A DNA stretch of 20,622 bases from a virus (taxonomy: Duplodnaviria; Heunggongvirae; Uroviricota; Caudoviricetes), in IMG/VR virus record IMGVR_UViG_2778261225_000004, one strand, 5' to 3'. Below, piece after piece: positions 8,648 to 17,088 of this stretch. The notes below the pieces were generated by a model. That model searched no databases. It was not told the origin of the DNA and was given only the letters and a program-made list of their open reading frames with translations. Numbering within the stretch: the stretch's first letter is position 1; each line of letters begins with the position of its first letter. The translations under genes were made by a program, and so were the position numbers.

Positions 8648-10399
8648 ATGATTCAGGACGCTTTTGTGCGCCAGCGTGCGCGGCAACTTTACTGGCAGGG
8701 TTATCCGCCCGCAGAAATATCACGTCTGATGGGAATAAACCCGAACACGATTTATGCGTGGAAAAAACGCGACCAGTGGGATGAAACGCCACCCGTGCAG
8801 CGTGTCACGCAGTCCATCGATGCGCGCCTCATCCAGCTCACTGAAAAACAGAATAAAACAGGTGGTGACTTCAAGGAAATAGACCTGCTGACCCGGCAGC
8901 TTAAAAAACTGCATGATGGCCAGCCGGATGCGACGGCCACAGGAAAGAAAGGCCGGGCGAAAAAACTCAAAAATCATTTCACGCCGGAACAGATTGCCGC
9001 ACTGCGGGAAAAAATCATCAGCAGGCTGGAGTGGCATCAGCGGGGCTGGTTTGACTCCCTGACCCTTTGCAGGGAAGCCGGGATACGTAACAGGATGATC
9101 CTGAAATCCCGACAGATTGGGGCGACCTGGTATTTTGCACAGGAAGCACTGCTGATGGCGCTGCGTGACGATGTGGCGCAACCTTACCAGCGTAACCAGA
9201 TTTTTTTGTCTGCGTCGCGTCGTCAGGCGTTCCAGTTTAAAAGCATTATTCAGAAGGCCGCGGCTGAAGTTGATGTGGAGCTGAAAGGGGGCGATAAAAT
9301 CATCCTCTCCAACGGCGCAGAGCTGCATTTTCTCGGCACTTCTGCTGCGTCGGCACAGTCCTATACGGGCAATTTTTATTTTGATGAATTTTTCTGGGTC
9401 AGTCGCTTTGCCGAACTGCGCAAGGTGGCTGGCGCTATGGCAACCCTCAGCGGACTGCGGCGCACCTACTTCTCCACGCCATCCACCGAAACGCACGAGG
9501 CATACGCCTACTGGAACGGCGACCGCTGGAACGAGAAAAAGGCCACGCATAAACGCCAGCGTTTTTCTGTGGACTGGAAAACGCTGCATAACGGGCTTAT
9601 CTGCCCTGACCGGACGTGGCGGCAAATTGTCACGCTGGAAGATGTGGTTAAACACGGCTGGAAACACACCGATATCGACGAAATTCGTGATGAAAACACC
9701 GAAGACGAGTTCCTCAATCTCTATATGTGTGAGTTTGTCCGCGAAGGGGAATCGGCATTTAACCTGAATATCCTGATTGGCTGCGGTGTTGACGGATACG
9801 ACGACTGGAAAGACTGGAAACCTTTTGCTCCCCGCCCGATGGGGAATCGTCCGGTATGGATTGGGTATGACGCAAACGGCAGCAGTGGCAACGGCGACAG
9901 CGGCGCTGTGTCCGTGGTGGTTCCTCCGGCTGTTCCTGGTGGCCGTTTTCGAACGGTGGAGACGCGACGCGTTCAGGGGCTGGAGTTTGAAGAACAGGCC
10001 AGAGTCATTGAAGAGTTCACGTGTCGCTACAACGTGGAACACATCGGCATTGATGTGACGGGCGGGAACGGGGAGGCTGTTTATCAGATAGTGAAGCGGT
10101 TTTTCCCTGCTGCTATTCCGTACACCTTCACGCTGTCATCCAAACGGTCGCTGGTACTGAAAATGCTGCAAATAATGCGTGCCGGACGGTGGGAATACGA
10201 TCGCGCCGAACGCGAGCTGGTCGCGGCCTTTAACGCCGTGCGTAAGGTGAAAACACCGGGCGGCTTTATCACTTACGAAACGGACCGCGCGAGGGGGATC
10301 AGCCACGGCGACCTTGCGTGGGCAACCATGCTTGCTGTCATTAACGAACCAATTGGCGGCGAAGGAGAAAACGAGCGTTTCACGGTTATGGAGTTCTGA
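8648..10399 (+). CDS. P: Terminase large (ATPase) subunit gpP
   Basis: 583-aa ORF with LYWQGY, KSRQIGATWYFAQEAL, NQIFLSAS, ELKGG, YFDEFFWV and GYDANG motifs collinear with remembered P2 gpP; GGGGGAG Shine-Dalgarno; stop overlaps the Q start (ATGA). Confidence 0.95.
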   Translation: MIQDAFVRQRARQLYWQGYPPAEISRLMGINPNTIYAWKKRDQWDETPPVQRVTQSIDARLIQLTEKQNKTGGDFKEIDLLTRQLKKLHDGQPDATATGKKGRAKKLKNHFTPEQIAALREKIISRLEWHQRGWFDSLTLCREAGIRNRMILKSRQIGATWYFAQEALLMALRDDVAQPYQRNQIFLSASRRQAFQFKSIIQKAAAEVDVELKGGDKIILSNGAELHFLGTSAASAQSYTGNFYFDEFFWVSRFAELRKVAGAMATLSGLRRTYFSTPSTETHEAYAYWNGDRWNEKKATHKRQRFSVDWKTLHNGLICPDRTWRQIVTLEDVVKHGWKHTDIDEIRDENTEDEFLNLYMCEFVREGESAFNLNILIGCGVDGYDDWKDWKPFAPRPMGNRPVWIGYDANGSSGNGDSGAVSVVVPPAVPGGRFRTVETRRVQGLEFEEQARVIEEFTCRYNVEHIGIDVTGGNGEAVYQIVKRFFPAAIPYTFTLSSKRSLVLKMLQIMRAGRWEYDRAERELVAAFNAVRKVKTPGGFITYETDRARGISHGDLAWATMLAVINEPIGGEGENERFTVMEF

Positions 10400-11445
10400 T
10401 GAGCAGAAAAAATAAAAAAGTGCGCATGAGTTCACGCATTGATCTCGCTGATGCGCTCAGGAAAGAATCATCGCTCAGTGCATTCACATTTGATGGTCCT
10501 TATCGCCTGACCGGGCATGACCTGCTGGACAATATGTACTGTGCTGATAACGGGCGATGGTATGAAACCCCGGTGGACTGGTACGGTCTGGCAAGAGCCG
10601 CCCGGCAAACGTCCTGGCATCAGTCTGCGCTTTACTTTAAGCGCAATGTATTGCTCGGTTGCTACATCCCGCACCCGCTGCTTTCCCGGCAGGATTTCTC
10701 GGCGCTGGCGCTGGACTGGTTTGTGTTCGGTAACGCATTCCTTGAGCTTCGGAGCAATATGCTCGGCGAACCACTTAAATTACGGCACGCACTGGCGAAA
10801 TACATGCGACGCGGAAGCGATCTTGAATCATGGTGGTATGTGCAGGATGGCAAGGACGCGTTTCAGTTTCGCCCTGGCAAAGTGTGCCACCTGATGAATC
10901 CGGACATTAACCAGGAAATTTACGGCATGCCGGAATATCTTGGCGCATTACTCTCGGCCAGCCTGTCTCATTCGGCGGACATGTTCAGAAAACTGTATTA
11001 CGACAATGGATCCCACGCCGGGTGCATCATCTACATCGGTGCAGCGCAGGTAAACCGCGAAAGCATGGACTCCCTGAAAGAAACGTTACAGGGTGCGCGT
11101 GGTGGTGGTGCGTTTAAAAACGTGCTCATCCATGCGCCCAACGGTGGCAAAGAGGGGGTGCAAATTTTGCCGTTCCAGCAGATCACCGCAAAGGATGAGT
11201 TCATGAATGTTAAGGCGGCATCCCGTGATGATGTGCTGGCTGCGCACCGCGTTCCGCCGCAACTGATGGGGGCGATGCCGGGCGAAAAAAGTGCGTTTGG
11301 TGATGTGGAGAAGGCCGCGCGGGTTTACGCAATTAACGAGCTGATGCCCGTCATGGAGGCCATGAAGCACATCAATGACTGGCTTGGCGAAGAGGTGATC
11401 CGCTTTAACCCTTACGCACTGTTAGACACCCAGCCCACATCCTGA
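10399..11445 (+). CDS. Q: Portal protein gpQ
   Basis: 348-aa ORF adjacent to P in the P2 arrangement, with a GGAG Shine-Dalgarno 5 nt before the ATG; size and position match P2 gpQ (344 aa). Confidence 0.93.
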   Translation: MSRKNKKVRMSSRIDLADALRKESSLSAFTFDGPYRLTGHDLLDNMYCADNGRWYETPVDWYGLARAARQTSWHQSALYFKRNVLLGCYIPHPLLSRQDFSALALDWFVFGNAFLELRSNMLGEPLKLRHALAKYMRRGSDLESWWYVQDGKDAFQFRPGKVCHLMNPDINQEIYGMPEYLGALLSASLSHSADMFRKLYYDNGSHAGCIIYIGAAQVNRESMDSLKETLQGARGGGAFKNVLIHAPNGGKEGVQILPFQQITAKDEFMNVKAASRDDVLAAHRVPPQLMGAMPGEKSAFGDVEKAARVYAINELMPVMEAMKHINDWLGEEVIRFNPYALLDTQPTS

Positions 11446-11471
11446 CGCGCTTCGCTTGTCTGCTGCTTCGC

Positions 11472-11496
11472 CGGGGCATAAAAAATTTATGCCCCG
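11472..11496. repeat. Perfect 11-bp inverted repeat (CGGGGCATAAA / TTTATGCCCCG, 3-nt spacer) just downstream of Q; candidate cos-associated or terminator hairpin
   Basis: Read directly from the sequence 27 nt after the Q stop. P2-like cos sites lie next to Q, but the remembered P2/186 19-nt cohesive-end sequence was not found verbatim. Confidence 0.4.
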
Positions 11497-11869
11497 ACTC
11501 TCCAGCTCCTGTATCAGTCAGATAATTTCACGACGCTTTCCTGCTTATTGCCATCATCGACAGTCAGACTCTTACGCAATCCCACCGCGTTGACTGCATG
11601 TTCTCGCCGTCTCAGTGCGATTTTGACGGCCTTACCTTTCACCCCATCAAATCAAAAGCCCTCACGTCTTTTTCACGCTCAGCGTGAGAAATACAGCCAT
11701 TCTGTTGTGTCGCTGCGACATCGTTCAGGGGATGCTATTTACCCCCTGAAACGCGGGCTGTTCCCCCGTCACCTGCGCGCAGAAAAAGCGCGTTTTTTTG
11801 TGCGCGCACGGATCCTTGACGGATCCAGCCGCCACGCGGGCCGGAAGGGTAAAAAGTTGTTCAAAAAAA

Positions 11870-11899
11870 TTGTGCAAATTTGTGCACTATTGTGCAGTA
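11870..11899. repeat. Three direct 10-bp iterons in helical phase (TTGTGCAAAT, TTGTGCACTA, TTGTGCAGTA)
   Basis: Exact 10-bp periodicity of TTGTGCA read from the sequence; preceded by palindromes CTGCGCGCAG and GTGCGCGCAC around 11773..11810 and a GGATCC-N5-GGATCC direct repeat at about 11811..11826. Confidence 0.4.
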
Positions 11900-12136
11900 T
11901 CATTACAGGATGTATATCGCTTCAAATGTGCTATATTTGGTCACATTAAGGCAGCGAAGAAGATGAACTTATCCTTATCGGTGTGACTACACGATATAGC
12001 CTCATCATTGTATGTGTATGGTAGGCGTGATAGCTTACCCCAACAGATTTGGGGGAGGTGGTTGACAACTGTAAAACCATCTCCATGTTAAAAGTAAATT
12101 AGTGATGTTTAAATGATTGAAAAAAGGAGACTAACT

Positions 12137-12181
12137 ATGACCGTACGCCGCACCTATAGCGAAGAAAACTGGGACGTTTAA
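12137..12181 (+). CDS. Leader micro-ORF (14 aa, MTVRRTYSEENWDV) with a strong Shine-Dalgarno
   Basis: AAAAAGGAG sits 8 nt before the ATG. The ORF is followed by CTCCTGTTTTTTT, which can pair with the Shine-Dalgarno region, then by a terminator hairpin. Not on the track because it is below the length cut-off. Confidence 0.25.
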   Translation: MTVRRTYSEENWDV

Positions 12182-12211
12182 CTCCTGTTTTTTTAGAGTA
12201 GTTTCAGTAGA

Positions 12212-12236
12212 ATGGGGGCTTTGGCTCCCATTTTTT
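12212..12236 (+). terminator. Intrinsic terminator-like hairpin (ATGGGGGC-TTTG-GCTCCCAT plus T5) 14 nt upstream of the 198-aa gene start
   Basis: 8-bp stem (one G-U pair), 4-nt loop and a T-run, read from the sequence; its position between a leader ORF and the downstream gene suggests an attenuator. Confidence 0.45.
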
Positions 12237-12249
12237 ATGGTTAAATACA

Positions 12250-12846
12250 ATGGATTTAGTTCTTTCTGCCCTTAGTTACATAGGGAAAATTTTTTCCAGT
12301 ATTTGGGAATCCAGCCCTACGTTTTATCCAGGTGCTGCGGGTGCGCTTATTGCAGTGATTAGCATACGAAATCAGAGAAAGACATCGCGCGAAAAAAACT
12401 CATTGGATTTTGAGGCTGCATATAAACGTAACAAGGACATAGTTGATGCGTGGTCAGAAGTGTTACGCATTCATAAGGATCGCCATAATTTTCCGATCGC
12501 TGATTGGGGAAAAGAAGAATATTCTCAAACAGATGGAGCAAAAGCATTAAAACTCATTTTTAATGAGTGGGAGCGTTGTGCTAATGCCGTGAATAACGGT
12601 TTGTATGATGAGCGGTATCTATATCGTGTTTATGGTTCTACCTTAATCTTTCTTGATGTCCATTTTGAACCTTATATGGAGGAGTGCCGCAAGCGTAATC
12701 CTAGGTTTTACCGTAACTTAAAATGTCTTGCTCTCCGATGGCGTGTTAGGCGAGCGTATGAAGATCAGGAAAACGATAGTAGGGAATACAAAAAACTGCT
12801 CAATGAGGCTAAGCGATTGGTAGACAAATTGCATACCAAATTCTGA
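12250..12846 (+). CDS. Hypothetical protein, 198 aa, single N-terminal transmembrane anchor plus a charged soluble domain; cargo gene at the P2 tin/old-equivalent position
   Basis: Clean ORF in an AT-rich island (visibly lower GC than the flanking phage genes). The N-terminus (FYPGAAGALIAVISI) is hydrophobic; the rest is Lys/Arg/Glu/Tyr-rich. It has its own terminator and is convergent to parR. No family was recognised from memory. Confidence 0.75.
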   Translation: MDLVLSALSYIGKIFSSIWESSPTFYPGAAGALIAVISIRNQRKTSREKNSLDFEAAYKRNKDIVDAWSEVLRIHKDRHNFPIADWGKEEYSQTDGAKALKLIFNEWERCANAVNNGLYDERYLYRVYGSTLIFLDVHFEPYMEECRKRNPRFYRNLKCLALRWRVRRAYEDQENDSREYKKLLNEAKRLVDKLHTKF

Positions 12847-12884
12847 TTTTGCATGCTTTGTGCTTCATGGCTTCTTGAATGGGA

Positions 12885-12918
12885 CATCAGGGCGAGTTCG
12901 CCCTGATGTTGTGTTATT
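12885..12918 (+). terminator. Intrinsic terminator (10-bp perfect stem CATCAGGGCG/CGCCCTGATG, loop AGTT, then TTGTGTTATT)
   Basis: Read from the sequence 39 nt after the stop of the 198-aa gene; the U-tract overlaps the stop of convergent parR. Confidence 0.6.
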
Positions 12919-13225
12919 CAGGAAATAACGCCCGGATATTTCCTGCCATCTGACTGGTTATCTGTGCGGTTGGTACTGGCTGTGACATGGGGCGTTCGGT
13001 CCTGGTTTGCGTCACTGATAACGCCTCATCGTCAGCCCATGCAGCCAGTCGGTAAGCCTCTGCCGGATTCATTTTCAGAAGTGCCAGCCCGGCCAGAAAA
13101 GCCACGCGTTGGCCGCTTTTGCGGGCTTCTGGTGTAAGGCTGTCCAGCCAGGCGCATGCATCGCCTTCGTTCTTGACGGCGGCGGGCTTCAGATAGAAAC
13201 TTATCCGTCTGGTTGGTGTCGTCAT
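12914..13225 (-). CDS. parR: ParR-like centromere-binding protein (type II partition adaptor)
   Basis: Internal ATG of track ORF 12914..13360, 5 nt downstream of the parM stop. The N-terminus RRISFYLKP..AWLDSLTPEARKSGQRVAFLAGLALL and the C-terminal IRALFPE resemble remembered plasmid R1 ParR (RTIAFKLNP..LTAGLALY..LRSLFPKE). Confidence 0.7.
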   Translation of the reverse strand: MTTPTRRISFYLKPAAVKNEGDACAWLDSLTPEARKSGQRVAFLAGLALLKMNPAEAYRLAAWADDEALSVTQTRTERPMSQPVPTAQITSQMAGNIRALFPE

Positions 13226-13229
13226 TGGT

Positions 13230-14189
13230 TTACTCCTTGTCCATTGCGTACAGCCCATTAACCAGAGCAAACTGTGGCACCCCGTCCGTGATGAAAGTCG
13301 CATTAACTCCGCAGGCTTCGCGGATAGCGGGTGCCACAATCTCCGCCCCGCCACCGACAACCATCACCCGCCCGTAACCCGAAAAAACCGCCAGCGCGCG
13401 GATCACGCGTTGTTTCAGTGTTTCTTCCTTTTCACGAATAACCGCCATCAGGCTGGCGTAATGCGCGTCATTGTGGATGTGCTGGCGCAGCCAGGCTTCA
13501 TCATGGCGATGTTCGATAATGGTATTGGCGATGTGGTGACTGGTACGCATACCGTTAGTGGCCATCACCGACAGTACGGCATCGGCCATCAGGGAAACGC
13601 CTACGTGTGGATCGCAAAACATCTGGCTGATACCTGCCAGTTGCCCCTGAACCTTTGCCACATCCAGCGTGGTTCCGCCCAAATCCACAATCAGCAGGGA
13701 TTCAAACGGACTCATGTCAGCCAGTGCCTTAAAGCCAGCCGGAATGGATTCAGGCATAACCCGTACGTTACGGATAGTGAATGCTTCGCCGTTCTGGTAC
13801 TCCACCGGGCGCATGACGTTCGCTTTTTTGCGGTTGATGTTGGCCATGTCCGGCTGTGCGTTTGTGTCGAAATATTCGCTCAGTGGCAGGGTGACAACCA
13901 CATCCACTTCCTGTGGTGTGATGCCTGATTTGACCAGCGCGTGGTGAATGGCGATTACATTCACATCGCTGTACTGGTATTGCGTGTCGGTCGTCTGGAC
14001 AAAGCGATCGCTGACCGGATCAAAACCATAGCGCACGCCATCAAGCATGTAGTTCGCGGGCTGCGTGCCACCGAACGGCGCAGACCATTCCGACTTGAAG
14101 CTGTTCGGGCTGATGGCGTTGCGGCGTTCGCCGTTCTCAGTCCATGCCAGCTTGATGTTGGTGGAGCCGTCGTCGATACAAATTTTCAT
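13230..14189 (-). CDS. parM: ParM/StbA-like actin-like segregation ATPase
   Basis: 319-aa ORF with actin-fold motifs collinear with remembered R1 ParM: CIDDGSTNIKLAW, YSDVNVIAIHHAL, VMPESIPAG, LLIVDLGGTTLDV, GVSL, VMVVGGGAE and a C-terminal LVNGLY. Confidence 0.85.
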   Translation of the reverse strand: MKICIDDGSTNIKLAWTENGERRNAISPNSFKSEWSAPFGGTQPANYMLDGVRYGFDPVSDRFVQTTDTQYQYSDVNVIAIHHALVKSGITPQEVDVVVTLPLSEYFDTNAQPDMANINRKKANVMRPVEYQNGEAFTIRNVRVMPESIPAGFKALADMSPFESLLIVDLGGTTLDVAKVQGQLAGISQMFCDPHVGVSLMADAVLSVMATNGMRTSHHIANTIIEHRHDEAWLRQHIHNDAHYASLMAVIREKEETLKQRVIRALAVFSGYGRVMVVGGGAEIVAPAIREACGVNATFITDGVPQFALVNGLYAMDKE

Positions 14190-14265: not shown

Positions 14266-17088
14266 TCATATATCGCGGCGTGTTTTTTGCTCATTTACGG
14301 GATTTGTGAGTCCCGTTTCTGTCTGTTTTTTGTTTCCACTGGTCAGGCTACCCCGCAGCAGGTCTGCTTTGCGGTGGGCGCGTTCAGTGGTTTCACTGAT
14401 TCTCTGTGCGTGCTCTGCGTCACGGATGGCGCGCAGCATGTCAGAAAGCACGGTAACGGGGGTTTTCATGGTGTTCTGGTCCTGCTGAAGTGTGGATGCC
14501 AGACGTGCGGCGGCTTCGGGGTCTGATGCCCCCAGTTGTTCCAGATAGCTGGCGACCGGGTTATGGCGGATCTCTGTGCTGCTTACGCCGTGATTACGGC
14601 TCAGGCGCTGCCAGAGCTGCGTGATTCGGCTGTCCGGGCGGGTATCCGGTTTGCGTACAATTTCAAATCCCTGCGGTGCAATGATGCTGCCGTCAACGTA
14701 CAGGCTGCCGCCCCGTAACAGGTGCTGCATCTGCTGTTCACCGATATGCAGGCCGAGAGATTCGGCAGATTCCCGCCATTCTTTAGCGAGTAATTCGTGG
14801 TTATCAGGCAAAGGCCGCTGCTGTTTGCGGCTCTGTGTCCAGCTCTGCATTTCATCACTGCTGTTTTTTGCCTGTTTGTCACGAAGCGAACGCATCAGCG
14901 CCCGGCGTTCGTGCCGTTTCAGTGAGCGCATCCATTCGTTCACTTCAACGCCATCAGGGAGCTGCGGCCACGGTGCTGGCCGTTCTTCCGGCTGTTCTGT
15001 CCCGTTGTTGTTCGTTTCCTGTACACGGGGACAGTTATTGCCACGAGTCCAAGGGGCGGCAGGGCCGCCCTGAAGGTCAAAACCATTTTCGCGGGCGCTG
15101 TCTTCCGCTTCCGGTTTGCGTCTTACCAGCTTCCAGTTATCCGGATGCGTGCACACACGGGAGGATTCCCCGATGAGTGGTGACCAGATCCCGTAAATCT
15201 GTACGCTCTGTTCGCCGTAATCGTTCAGCTCATCGGCGAGGTCGTAGGCGGTGCGAATCAGGTAGTCTTTGCGTGGAACAAGTACGCCGCCCTGTTTCTC
15301 TATGTAGGTGGCAAAACATCCTGCATCAGCGGCAGCGAGTACCGCATCCATTGCGTCATCCTTCAGCCGTTGCGGGCCTTCCGGGTTGCGTGCCATCTGG
15401 CTGGCAAGGCGGCGGAGTTCACGCCACACCTGACGGGAGGGGATGCCAAAGAACTGGAACTGGCGGACCCGGTGAAGGCGTGCCCAACCGATGGCGCGCT
15501 CCACGCTCTCGGCCATTGATTTTCCGGTTTCGTGGTCAACGCGTGGTTTGCCTGTTTTCGGGTCGATGCCATCCACGGCGCGGCTGTCCAGGTTTTTTCC
15601 GATGTAGGTGGCGATGTAGCTGGTTGGCGTGCCTTTTGAGCCGTCGACATACTCCGCCTTAAAGCGCGGAGTAATATCATCGCCCAGCTCGTGACGATCT
15701 TCCTGAATGGCAATATCGCGGGTGTGGGACACAATGGTGTCGATTTCTTCCGGATGAGCAAAGACCATCATATGCCAGTGCACGGTGCCGTCATGGTGAG
15801 GCTCCACCGTGCGGATGCCATACCAGCGAAGACCGTCGCGGTTCAGTTTCTTGCGGACCGCCGCAAAAAACGTGTTAACCAGGTAATCGCTGGAGTCGCG
15901 CATGGTGGCCCCGTTCCATTTGGGATTCGGATGACCGTTCTCTGTTGTGGCGTGGTATTTTGACGGGCAGGTGACAGTCAGAAACACCGCTTTGTCGCCA
16001 CGGGCTTCGGCCAGAAGTTCCAGCCCCTTCATGGTGGCCATCATTTCTGCCTTACGGTGAACCGGGTTACTTACTCCCGCGTAATACACCGTCTCGAGAT
16101 CAATCGTGAACCCGTCTTCATTTTCCAGCATGAAACTTTTCAGGAAATCGCGTGTTTTCTCGCGCTGTGCGCGAAACTCGCTTAACGCGTCCTGGCTCAG
16201 ATAGGGTGATGTTTTTCTGGAAACCAGACAGGCGGCGCGGAGTTGTTCTTCTCTCCACTCGCAACGTAACAGCCACAGTTTGCGTTTCCACCATTCTGCA
16301 CAGGTCAGGCGAAGGATTGCGCCCGGCAGCAGCTCCGTGTCCGGTTCGTTCCTCCGGTCTTTGTCTGTTGTAAGTGCGTCATAATGTGGAGGCATGGCGT
16401 GCAGGTGTAACGCCATGCGGGCCAGCATCTGATACGCCTTCAGCGTTACATCCATGGTCAGTTCGCCATCGGTCGCGCCAAAGCCATCGCAGAGTTTTTC
16501 GAAGGTGCTGCTGAACATCGCCGCCGTCATGGTGGCCAGTGTCTGTATCTGGTGTTTGTTGAGCTGCGGCAGGTAAAGCAAATCGTCCAGGCGTTCGCGT
16601 CCGGCAAGGGAGCGATAACCCTGTGTCAGCCAGCGGTGATCGGTGCGCTCCAGACGTTCGAATATTTTGCGCAGGTTTCCGCGCGCGTAGCGTTCAGCCT
16701 GCCAGTTCTTTTTGCCTTTCTGACGATCGGCTTCCTGTTTTTTGCGCAGGAAGGAGAGGTGGCGAATAAGCGGATCGCGCAGATAGGACGGCAGCAGGCG
16801 CAGCGAGGCCATGGCTTCATCCACCGCGCCGCGTGCCTGTTTTCTGGCATCTCCTGCCAGTGTGATGGTTTTGTCCTGTTTTTCCTGTGCGTCCAGGCTT
16901 TTATTAATCAGGTTGCCCAGCGGCGTTGCGGAGAACGCCGCATCAGCCATTTCCTGGCGGCGCTCGTTCTCTACCCGGTAGGCATCCAGCCAGGAGGAAA
17001 GCGCGGATTCAGGAGCGGGGATCCCCGTTCCTTCACGCCCCACTGCGTGGCGCGGTTGTTGCCAGTCCCTGATGTACTCTGCCGTCAT
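14266..17088 (-). CDS. A: Replication initiation protein gpA (rolling-circle replication endonuclease) with an extended C-terminus
   Basis: 940-aa ORF at the P2 gene A position (downstream of the early operon, next to the cos-proximal cargo region). The size and a VHWHMMVF-type motif fit the P2 gpA family; about 180 aa longer than remembered P2 gpA (761 aa). Confidence 0.88.
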   Translation of the reverse strand: MTAEYIRDWQQPRHAVGREGTGIPAPESALSSWLDAYRVENERRQEMADAAFSATPLGNLINKSLDAQEKQDKTITLAGDARKQARGAVDEAMASLRLLPSYLRDPLIRHLSFLRKKQEADRQKGKKNWQAERYARGNLRKIFERLERTDHRWLTQGYRSLAGRERLDDLLYLPQLNKHQIQTLATMTAAMFSSTFEKLCDGFGATDGELTMDVTLKAYQMLARMALHLHAMPPHYDALTTDKDRRNEPDTELLPGAILRLTCAEWWKRKLWLLRCEWREEQLRAACLVSRKTSPYLSQDALSEFRAQREKTRDFLKSFMLENEDGFTIDLETVYYAGVSNPVHRKAEMMATMKGLELLAEARGDKAVFLTVTCPSKYHATTENGHPNPKWNGATMRDSSDYLVNTFFAAVRKKLNRDGLRWYGIRTVEPHHDGTVHWHMMVFAHPEEIDTIVSHTRDIAIQEDRHELGDDITPRFKAEYVDGSKGTPTSYIATYIGKNLDSRAVDGIDPKTGKPRVDHETGKSMAESVERAIGWARLHRVRQFQFFGIPSRQVWRELRRLASQMARNPEGPQRLKDDAMDAVLAAADAGCFATYIEKQGGVLVPRKDYLIRTAYDLADELNDYGEQSVQIYGIWSPLIGESSRVCTHPDNWKLVRRKPEAEDSARENGFDLQGGPAAPWTRGNNCPRVQETNNNGTEQPEERPAPWPQLPDGVEVNEWMRSLKRHERRALMRSLRDKQAKNSSDEMQSWTQSRKQQRPLPDNHELLAKEWRESAESLGLHIGEQQMQHLLRGGSLYVDGSIIAPQGFEIVRKPDTRPDSRITQLWQRLSRNHGVSSTEIRHNPVASYLEQLGASDPEAAARLASTLQQDQNTMKTPVTVLSDMLRAIRDAEHAQRISETTERAHRKADLLRGSLTSGNKKQTETGLTNPVNEQKTRRDI
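14299..14338. repeat. Repeat module B (hairpin CGGGA-TTTGTGAG-TCCCG followed by TTTCTGTCTGTTTTTTG) inside the 3' end of gene A
   Basis: Read from the sequence; a direct-repeat partner of module A. Homopolymer lengths in this stretch are uncertain. Confidence 0.3.

Follow-up and report, generated by a model that had tools for sequence, protein, structure and literature searches.

A conserved short reading frame and a terminator precede the DUF4760 gene, a candidate defence cargo of a P2-like prophage hotspot

Does a small gene in a swappable position of a phage genome act on its own, or is it one part of a larger unit, and could that unit exclude other phages? The question is raised by an open reading frame (ORF) at positions 12250-12846 (plus strand) of a 20,622-nucleotide stretch of tailed-phage DNA (IMG/VR record IMGVR_UViG_2778261225_000004; the whole stretch is called the window below). 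The original prediction had presented its 198-residue product as an orphan without a recognisable family, and the gene as a stand-alone, candidate single-gene phage-exclusion or abortive-infection effector with a leader and terminators of its own. The ORF list and the translation confirm the ATG-initiated frame, which is a genuine gene of the DUF4760 family and has no Shine-Dalgarno (SD) sequence. It is not a single-gene unit, since a conserved micro-ORF and an intrinsic terminator always precede genes of this family.

The micro-ORF was first revealed by aligning the upstream regions of four unrelated DUF4760 contexts. In the window it occupies 12137-12181 (plus strand) and encodes the 14-residue peptide MTVRRTYSEENWDV, which ends in EENWDV; its SD sequence AGGAG (12125-12129, plus strand) lies 7 nt before its ATG, with an anti-SD duplex of -8.7 kcal/mol. 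According to RNAfold, the motif codons GAAGAAAACUGGG pair with a pyrimidine tract just past the stop codon in a predicted first hairpin (12161-12194, plus strand). A consensus scan places an intrinsic terminator at 12209-12236 (plus strand; core stem TGGGGGC/GCTCCCA, followed by six T), which ends 13 nt before the DUF4760 ATG. The best sigma-70-like site upstream of the micro-ORF, TTGACA-16-CATGTT (12062-12089, plus strand), is a weak candidate promoter. The upstream leader and terminator of the original prediction are hence present, as a tiny ORF with a strong SD and the hairpin at 12209-12236, but the gene does not stand alone, because the conserved micro-ORF travels along with it.

The same arrangement recurs throughout the family. 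A micro-ORF precedes the DUF4760 gene in every locus with enough upstream DNA, that is, in 31 non-redundant leaders and in more distant loci, and such leaders reach loci whose DUF4760 proteins are less than 30% identical to the window protein. The peptides follow the consensus [FYIVL]-x-[ED]-E-[ND]-W-[GD]-[VFL] and have clade-specific endings, namely EENWDV, EENWGF, EEDWGVFISK, EEDWGLS, EEDWPI and EQDWGVNP, each closed by the stop codon. Leaders from Halomonadaceae and marine viromes end in a tandem motif, DEDWGV(S/Y)-DEDWGV(S/Y), and the most distant member checked has, in the same arrangement, a peptide without Trp that ends in KEIDLGFM. Among the 31 leaders the Trp codon is invariant, and the variation sits mainly at third codon positions (GAA/GAG 12:19, GAT/GAC, GGT/GGC 13:7 and GTT/GTG/GTA), which argues for selection on the peptide. 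The stop codon is followed, after 19-36 nt, by a GC hairpin with a U-run, the stems of which differ between clades with their complementarity kept. About 10-40 nt past this terminator, across the loci, the DUF4760 ATG follows without an SD; the mean anti-SD duplex amounts to -6.95 kcal/mol for the 31 micro-ORFs versus -1.80 kcal/mol for the DUF4760 starts. Because the gene lacks an SD and begins just past the terminator, its protein would be made by read-through only, and it is probably poorly translated. The cassette of micro-ORF, terminator and SD-less DUF4760 gene is family-wide.

The peptide also occurs apart from the gene. When IMG/VR was scanned with codon patterns that encode EEDWGV and EENWDV, the matches comprised, besides the DUF4760 leaders, many micro-ORFs with a good SD that end in the motif, such as those for MFNEENWDV, MNEENWDV, MMEENWDV, MNEEDWGV, MTVSINEEDWGV and MVNEEDWGVY, and DUF4760 was found nowhere in the fetched loci of these orphans. 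A stop codon directly follows EENWDV in 20 of the 119 pattern matches, where about 5.6 would be expected by chance (p = 7e-7; 3e-4 when the DUF4760-linked cases are left out); in the control with the reversed motif, none of 20 matches was directly followed by a stop and one lay in a short ORF. In one orphan locus the micro-ORF has its own terminator 6 nt past its end and then a perfect TTGACA-17-TATAAT. Because this terminator and promoter come next, the micro-ORF cannot be the leader of the downstream gene. The orphans, of 8-14 residues, with a good SD and ending in EENWDV or EEDWGV(x), were seen at L126:7675-7760 and in loci L136, L145, L158, L162, L179, L187 and L189, further ones in L190, L113, L085, L062, L073 and L063, and they appear to form an unannotated class of phage micro-genes.

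Several motifs may also be strung together. Two viral contigs of about 176 kb carry arrays, one with three translationally coupled micro-ORFs (L092:2537-2737) and one with a peptide that contains EEDWGL, EEDWGV and EENWGV and is followed by a final EENWGF before the stop (L117:285-441); these multi-motif arrays, among whose motifs EENWDV is represented as well, combine variants that accompany different DUF4760 clades. Both lie directly upstream of a gene for 193-196 residues and of a gene for about 705 residues, the latter of which we take to be structural (sheath-like). In the virulent T4-like Yersinia phages fHe-Yen9-01 (L075), phiR1-RT (L259:1736-1768) and TG1, an unannotated orphan for MVNEEDWGVY or MVNEENWGVY lies in the interval bounded by the gp55/a-gt.5 region and gp47, immediately before a small zinc-finger ORF. 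The orphan and the annotated start of this zinc-finger gene, g064, overlap, and the gene may in fact begin further downstream. To judge from these sequences, the orphans speak for a peptide that has its own function, though a widely used cis-regulatory upstream ORF would also be compatible with them.

The assignment of the protein itself is straightforward. It matches Pfam DUF4760 (PF15956) with 87.5 bits (E 1.2e-24; cut-off 25) over residues 29-164 (12334-12741, plus strand), covering model positions 5-141 of 141, and it also matches phrog_2284, to which no function is assigned; by this full-length match, its size, its hydrophobic N terminus and the conserved motifs it is a member of the family. 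Database proteins with 99% identity exist, and homologues of 40-99% identity are spread across Enterobacterales under the sole name 'DUF4760 domain-containing protein'. The description as an orphan was accordingly mistaken, and so was the lack of a family, but 'uncharacterised' was apt, as the DUF4760 family itself carries no assigned function. An exhaustive profile search (E <= 1e-3) yields 599 clusters at 50% identity; among the 150 clusters listed, lengths run from about 80 to 425 residues and are mostly 150-300. All 62 of the 62 diverse relatives scanned match PF15956, and no second Pfam domain is shared consistently among them; isolated weak matches to holin, SLATT_1, HEPN_Apea and colicin models occur in one member each. 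Alignments display the conserved features REKNSLDFE, (F/L)NEWERCANA (FNEWERCANA in the window protein), YGST and an Arg-rich C-terminal helix, and Glu108 and Trp164 are invariant family-wide. A hydrophobic N-terminal segment lies before REKNSLDFE, and about 150-250 residues are typical. Two Pseudoalteromonas proteins, P0061 and P0208, have 425-439 residues, about twice the usual length. Two separate stretches of P0061 align to the DUF4760 profile, a pattern that suggests tandem duplication as far as the alignment goes; if real, such a duplication hints at a domain working as a dimer.

The N-terminal transmembrane helix claimed for the protein is marginal in this member but clear at the level of the family. 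Kyte-Doolittle hydropathy identifies residues 21-39 (SSPTFYPGAAGALIAVISI; 12310-12366, plus strand) as the hydrophobic anchor, with a best 19-residue value of 1.22, whereas the equivalent segment reaches at least 1.6 in 53 of the 62 diverse members. The anchor is followed by the basic stretch RNQRKTSREK, and across the family the hydrophobic segment always lies directly N-terminal of a basic R-x-Q-R...REKN stretch. Because this strongly basic stretch directly follows the hydrophobic segment, the positive-inside rule predicts that the C-terminal domain is cytoplasmic. The structure prediction proposed with the original claim was carried out: the AlphaFold2 model of the 198-residue protein is all-helical (pLDDT 88.8), and its soluble part is modelled as a basic, all-helical domain of about 150 residues. 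A Foldseek search of the PDB with this model returned nothing significant, SAG101 appearing at E = 9.5, and a sequence search of the PDB with the family profile gave no match.

Is the gene placed where defence genes are found? By its sequence the window represents a P2-family (P88-like) prophage, with P88 (genus Xuanwuvirus, family Peduoviridae) as the nearest cultured phage. In E. coli SCU-101, a prophage inserted beside pdxB has the same RefSeq gene order and shares 99.6% identity with window positions 11450-13300. The DUF4760 cassette lies between the portal gene gpQ (10399-11445, plus strand; PF04860 and the RefSeq annotation of the 99.6%-identical record), which forms the left border, and the replication endonuclease gene gpA (14266-17088, minus strand; PF05840 Phage_GPA, E 2e-131), which forms the right one. 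On the left the gene for the large terminase (8648-10399; Pfam) precedes gpQ; a ParR-like (Plasmid_stab_B) gene at 12914-13225 and parM at 13230-14189, both on the minus strand (Pfam and RefSeq annotation), stand between cassette and gpA. P2-like phages have their main defence hotspot at this cos-proximal gpQ-gpA site (PMC9122126, PMC13586616), so that the hotspot position claimed for the gene is borne out. A blastn comparison with P88 delimits the variable module, with borders at 11897/11898 and 12881-12884, as an exchangeable cargo of 984 bp (11898-12881). Its GC content is 0.40 as opposed to 0.547 in the remainder of the window, and the stretch of about 1 kb around the ORF has 0.40-0.43 against about 0.55 elsewhere, in keeping with the low GC noted before. 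The downstream terminator, which had been ascribed to the gene, does exist as a hairpin with a T-run at 12883-12910 (a 12-nt perfect inverted repeat), but it belongs to the conserved phage backbone outside the cargo and is common to phages with other cargo.

The flanks of the module are conserved and its content is variable. They are present in 1,437 of 5,426 complete E. coli genomes, 15 of which have the DUF4760 cargo, and in other phages the same site holds an ead/Ea22-like gene or other small genes. A second E. coli DUF4760 clade (P0052) was not found in this collection. The module shares its site, its swap behaviour, its small size and its low GC with gpQ-gpA cargo such as old, tin, Rst_DUF4238 and PARIS-type systems (Rousset 2022; Moura de Sousa 2026), whereas it stands outside the validated and tested set and has no sequence relation to PADLOC models. 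The combination 'DUF4760 + StbA + Plasmid_stab_B' is listed among the P2 hotspot arrangements in supplementary Table S5 of Rousset 2022, where the string occurs at least 197 times. About one quarter of P2-like phages have a ParM/ParR pair and may persist as plasmids (Rousset et al.). A functional link between DUF4760 and ParMR was rejected, since more than 1,400 genomes share the flanks, including ParR and the end of ParM, without DUF4760.

All retrievable contexts of DUF4760 relatives are accessory positions of phages or prophages. Relatives were found in Klebsiella at the end of a lambdoid prophage, beside host genes, and between antiterminator Q and the holin gene of another lambdoid prophage; in Plesiomonas directly upstream of lysis genes; at prophage ends that adjoin host genes, in E. 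coli (smpB) and in Yersinia; next to a P2-type portal gene on a marine virome contig; in a P2-like Pseudoalteromonas prophage, flanked by the genes for a cI-like repressor and an integrase; in a Mu-like phage; and in Vibrio phage E8498 (K139 group). One long member lies beside PIN-TPR-GreABC and HetE-N conflict genes. No conserved protein-coding neighbour was present among the retrieved loci. In three clonal pig isolates of E. coli (EC556, our L237, EC571 and EC581) an IS1 element interrupts codons 5-8 of the DUF4760 gene (corresponding to window positions 12262-12272) and leaves the micro-ORF and the terminator intact, and in E. coli GPEC548 an IS5 abuts the 3' end of the gene, the match stopping 10 nt before the end of the ORF. 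These few insertion sequence (IS) events suggest that the gene is dispensable and possibly costly.

On the basis of these observations, we tentatively propose that the locus serves the prophage for exclusion or abortive infection, with DUF4760 as an effector that peptide and terminator restrain, a reading to which we assign somewhat less than an even chance. A role in defence or exclusion is a reasonable candidate because the gene is swappable hotspot cargo and almost all of its relatives belong to the accessory genes of prophages. The cassette would be a two-part accessory element in the cos-proximal hotspot of the P88-like prophage. Its first part would be a micro-gene with a strong SD that encodes the 14-residue peptide ending in EENWDV and is closed by the intrinsic terminator; its second part would be the DUF4760 protein, with an N-terminal anchor and a domain of about 150 residues that is probably cytoplasmic and contains the invariant polar residues. 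From this layout the peptide would be expected to be abundant and the protein scarce. The short and presumably short-lived peptide might act in trans as an antidote that is bound by the conserved DUF4760 domain; when infection shuts down host gene expression, the antidote would be lost and the effector freed, and the orphan copies in lytic phages could serve as a counter-measure. Within the defence reading we slightly prefer such an antidote, acting in trans and mimicked by phages, to a pure attenuator. The predicted layout of a highly expressed small partner upstream of a weakly expressed effector is shared with ToxIN, RnlAB/Dmd and AbiE, and T4 Dmd and the pseudo-ToxI of phiTE offer a possible parallel to the phage-borne peptide mimics, whereas the partner of DUF4760, with 8-21 residues, is far shorter than known protein antitoxins of toxin-antitoxin systems. 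BstA/aba, a prophage defence gene with a built-in control element, and the membrane-anchored HK97 gp15 are analogies only.

Several observations weigh against a defence cassette of this kind. The protein has no match among known defence families: PADLOC (PADLOC-DB 2.0) gave no family at E <= 1, and NCBIfam gave no match. DUF4760 is absent from the table of tested systems in Rousset 2022; the gpQ-gpA hotspot also carries non-defence cargo such as partition systems and toxins (Rousset 2022), and the other cargo positions of DUF4760 genes likewise hold non-defence genes. The clade is rare (the 15 of 5,426 complete E. coli genomes given above), and the IS1 insertion, restricted to one lineage, is a single event. 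Sigma-70 sites upstream of the micro-ORFs of 23 loci scored 8.26 versus 8.00 for shuffled sequences, and a consensus scan at the window locus found none. Finally, some orphan micro-ORFs are embedded in operons of structural genes or immediately precede other genes, a placement that also fits a cis-regulatory role.

An alternative explanation is a leader that acts purely in cis. The ribosome would be slowed by its nascent EE(N/D)W peptide or by the tRNA supply, and terminator read-through would change; DUF4760 would still be the effector, induced on translation stress, and the peptide would have no role of its own. The leaders of trp, tna, mgtL and MifM illustrate that clusters of Trp and acidic residues are used in arrest and attenuation peptides. 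With leader-peptide attenuators (trpL, tnaC, mgtL and antibiotic-responsive ones) the DUF4760 locus shares this cluster as well as the SD, the short translated ORF and the intrinsic terminator upstream of the gene, and the order of SD, short ORF, spacer of 19-36 nt, terminator and SD-less gene is invariant. RNAfold predicts in many clades a pairing of the motif codons with the pyrimidine tract behind the stop, in the manner of a 1:2 hairpin, and the tandem motif of some leaders recalls tandem control codons. The motif codons moreover resemble the 5' arm of the terminator and in several loci can pair with its 3' arm better than most control windows do, an enrichment that is not robust and is confounded by purine/pyrimidine composition. 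In contrast to such attenuators, the DUF4760 locus has a peptide that is conserved in sequence and also occurs free-standing, and two folding tests gave no support to an antiterminator switch. Equilibrium folding with ribosome footprints kept the terminator probability at about 1.0 at any ribosome position in 15 of 16 leaders (0.62-0.97 in the exception, L015), and in transcripts truncated before the 3' arm the ribosome did not consistently cause the 5' arm to be sequestered. Against Rfam, 11300-13300 gave only chance matches below the threshold; the distance from motif to stop varies between 1 and 10 codons; and the orphan with its own terminator and a promoter behind it cannot be the leader of a downstream gene. 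We regard a leader that acts purely in cis as unlikely.

An accessory gene with a task other than defence, in envelope physiology, lysis timing or prophage maintenance, is rather doubtful as well, yet it receives the most weight among the alternatives. The hotspot might simply accept any cargo, and partition systems and toxins are carried there; two DUF4760 relatives stand just upstream of a lysis cassette, one distant member has a weak holin-family match, and no known defence model matches. The relatives, however, are found in many different cargo sites rather than in one functional module, one of them among conflict-system genes, and a large conserved domain that is predicted to be cytoplasmic, together with an expression that seems tightly throttled, is unlike holins. 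A holin was rejected for the window protein on these grounds: the lysis genes of the window lie elsewhere, the soluble domain comprises about 150 residues, and the weak holin match concerns 1 of 62 members only. Constitutive superinfection exclusion, in which the anchored protein would block incoming DNA at the inner membrane without killing, like T4 Imm, P22 SieA and HK97 gp15, appears to us very unlikely. A membrane-anchored prophage moron has the classic position and architecture for this function, and the presumably low expression would suit it. What is conserved, however, is a part predicted to lie in the cytoplasm, and its invariant polar residues rather resemble a ligand-binding or catalytic site; exclusion of this type would leave the conserved peptide partner unexplained, and scans of Pfam, PADLOC, PHROG and NCBIfam models showed no similarity to known superinfection exclusion families.

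The helical model also invites comparison with plant immunity. The cytoplasmic domain might be a prokaryotic counterpart of the EP domain of plant EDS1, PAD4 and SAG101 and recognise an immune signal that derives from nucleotides and is produced in trans. The modelled likeness is a reproducible resemblance at the level of the fold, not family membership. When two DUF4760 profiles were aligned by hhalign with a profile of 49 plant EP domains, seeded with AtEDS1 residues 343-623 (100% identical to 7xdd_B), the probability was 0.4-0.5%; Pfam EDS1_EP (PF18117) is matched by none of the 62 members, root mean square deviations amount to 4-6.5 A, and Foldseek gives no support. EDS1-family proteins have an N-terminal lipase-like domain and, as heterodimers, bind pRib-AMP/ADP or ADPr-ATP, whereas DUF4760 proteins have a hydrophobic membrane anchor in place of that domain; the loci examined showed neither a lipase-like domain nor a partner of the TIR or cyclase type. 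We consider such a receptor highly improbable. A two-component module that joins this likeness to the antidote, an EP-like helical membrane effector silenced by a fast-turnover peptide of 8-21 residues, with the orphan and multi-motif copies of virulent and jumbo phages as a broad counter-defence, strikes us as improbable too, if less so.

The surroundings of the cassette contain further features. The left border of the module coincides with three tandem 10-bp repeats with TTGTGCA (AAAATTGTGC, AAATTTGTGC and ACTATTGTGC; window positions 11866-11899), which might, as a binding site for a protein or a site of recombination, mark the hotspot edge. The conserved, portal-proximal non-coding stretch, in the region where one would expect a cos site of the P2 type, contains two hairpins that are perfect or nearly so (11472-11496 and 11774-11808); T- and A-runs flank the second one on either side, as in a bidirectional terminator. 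Compared with window positions 11445-11450, the SCU-101 prophage (L001:11383-12000) has about 610 bp of extra DNA, including a 525-bp hypothetical gene on the minus strand, and this insertion indicates that a second small variable spot adjoins the portal gene. A TTG-initiated ORF of 133 residues (11548-11949) is probably no gene: it has no family match and lies mostly in backbone DNA that is conserved up to 11897. The gpA-like protein has 940 residues, of which the Phage_GPA domain covers residues 179-503 only, followed by a long C-terminal part without a Pfam match.

The DUF4760 family and its listing in the hotspot were known already. Beyond the supplementary table of Rousset 2022, our literature search returned nothing relevant on DUF4760, PF15956, the peptide motifs or leader-peptide-controlled defence; the sole indexed paper that names DUF4760 does not mention the upstream micro-ORF and terminator, and the peptide motifs occur in no indexed paper. 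Control of a defence system by a peptide of 8-21 residues together with a terminator has no description in the literature searched. If the cassette is defensive, it would extend the known repertoire by a family that comprises, at 50% identity, about 600 clusters and is carried by P2-like, lambdoid and Mu-like phages of Gammaproteobacteria, and if the two-component reading holds true, the micro-ORFs of phages would be among the smallest known anti-defence genes.

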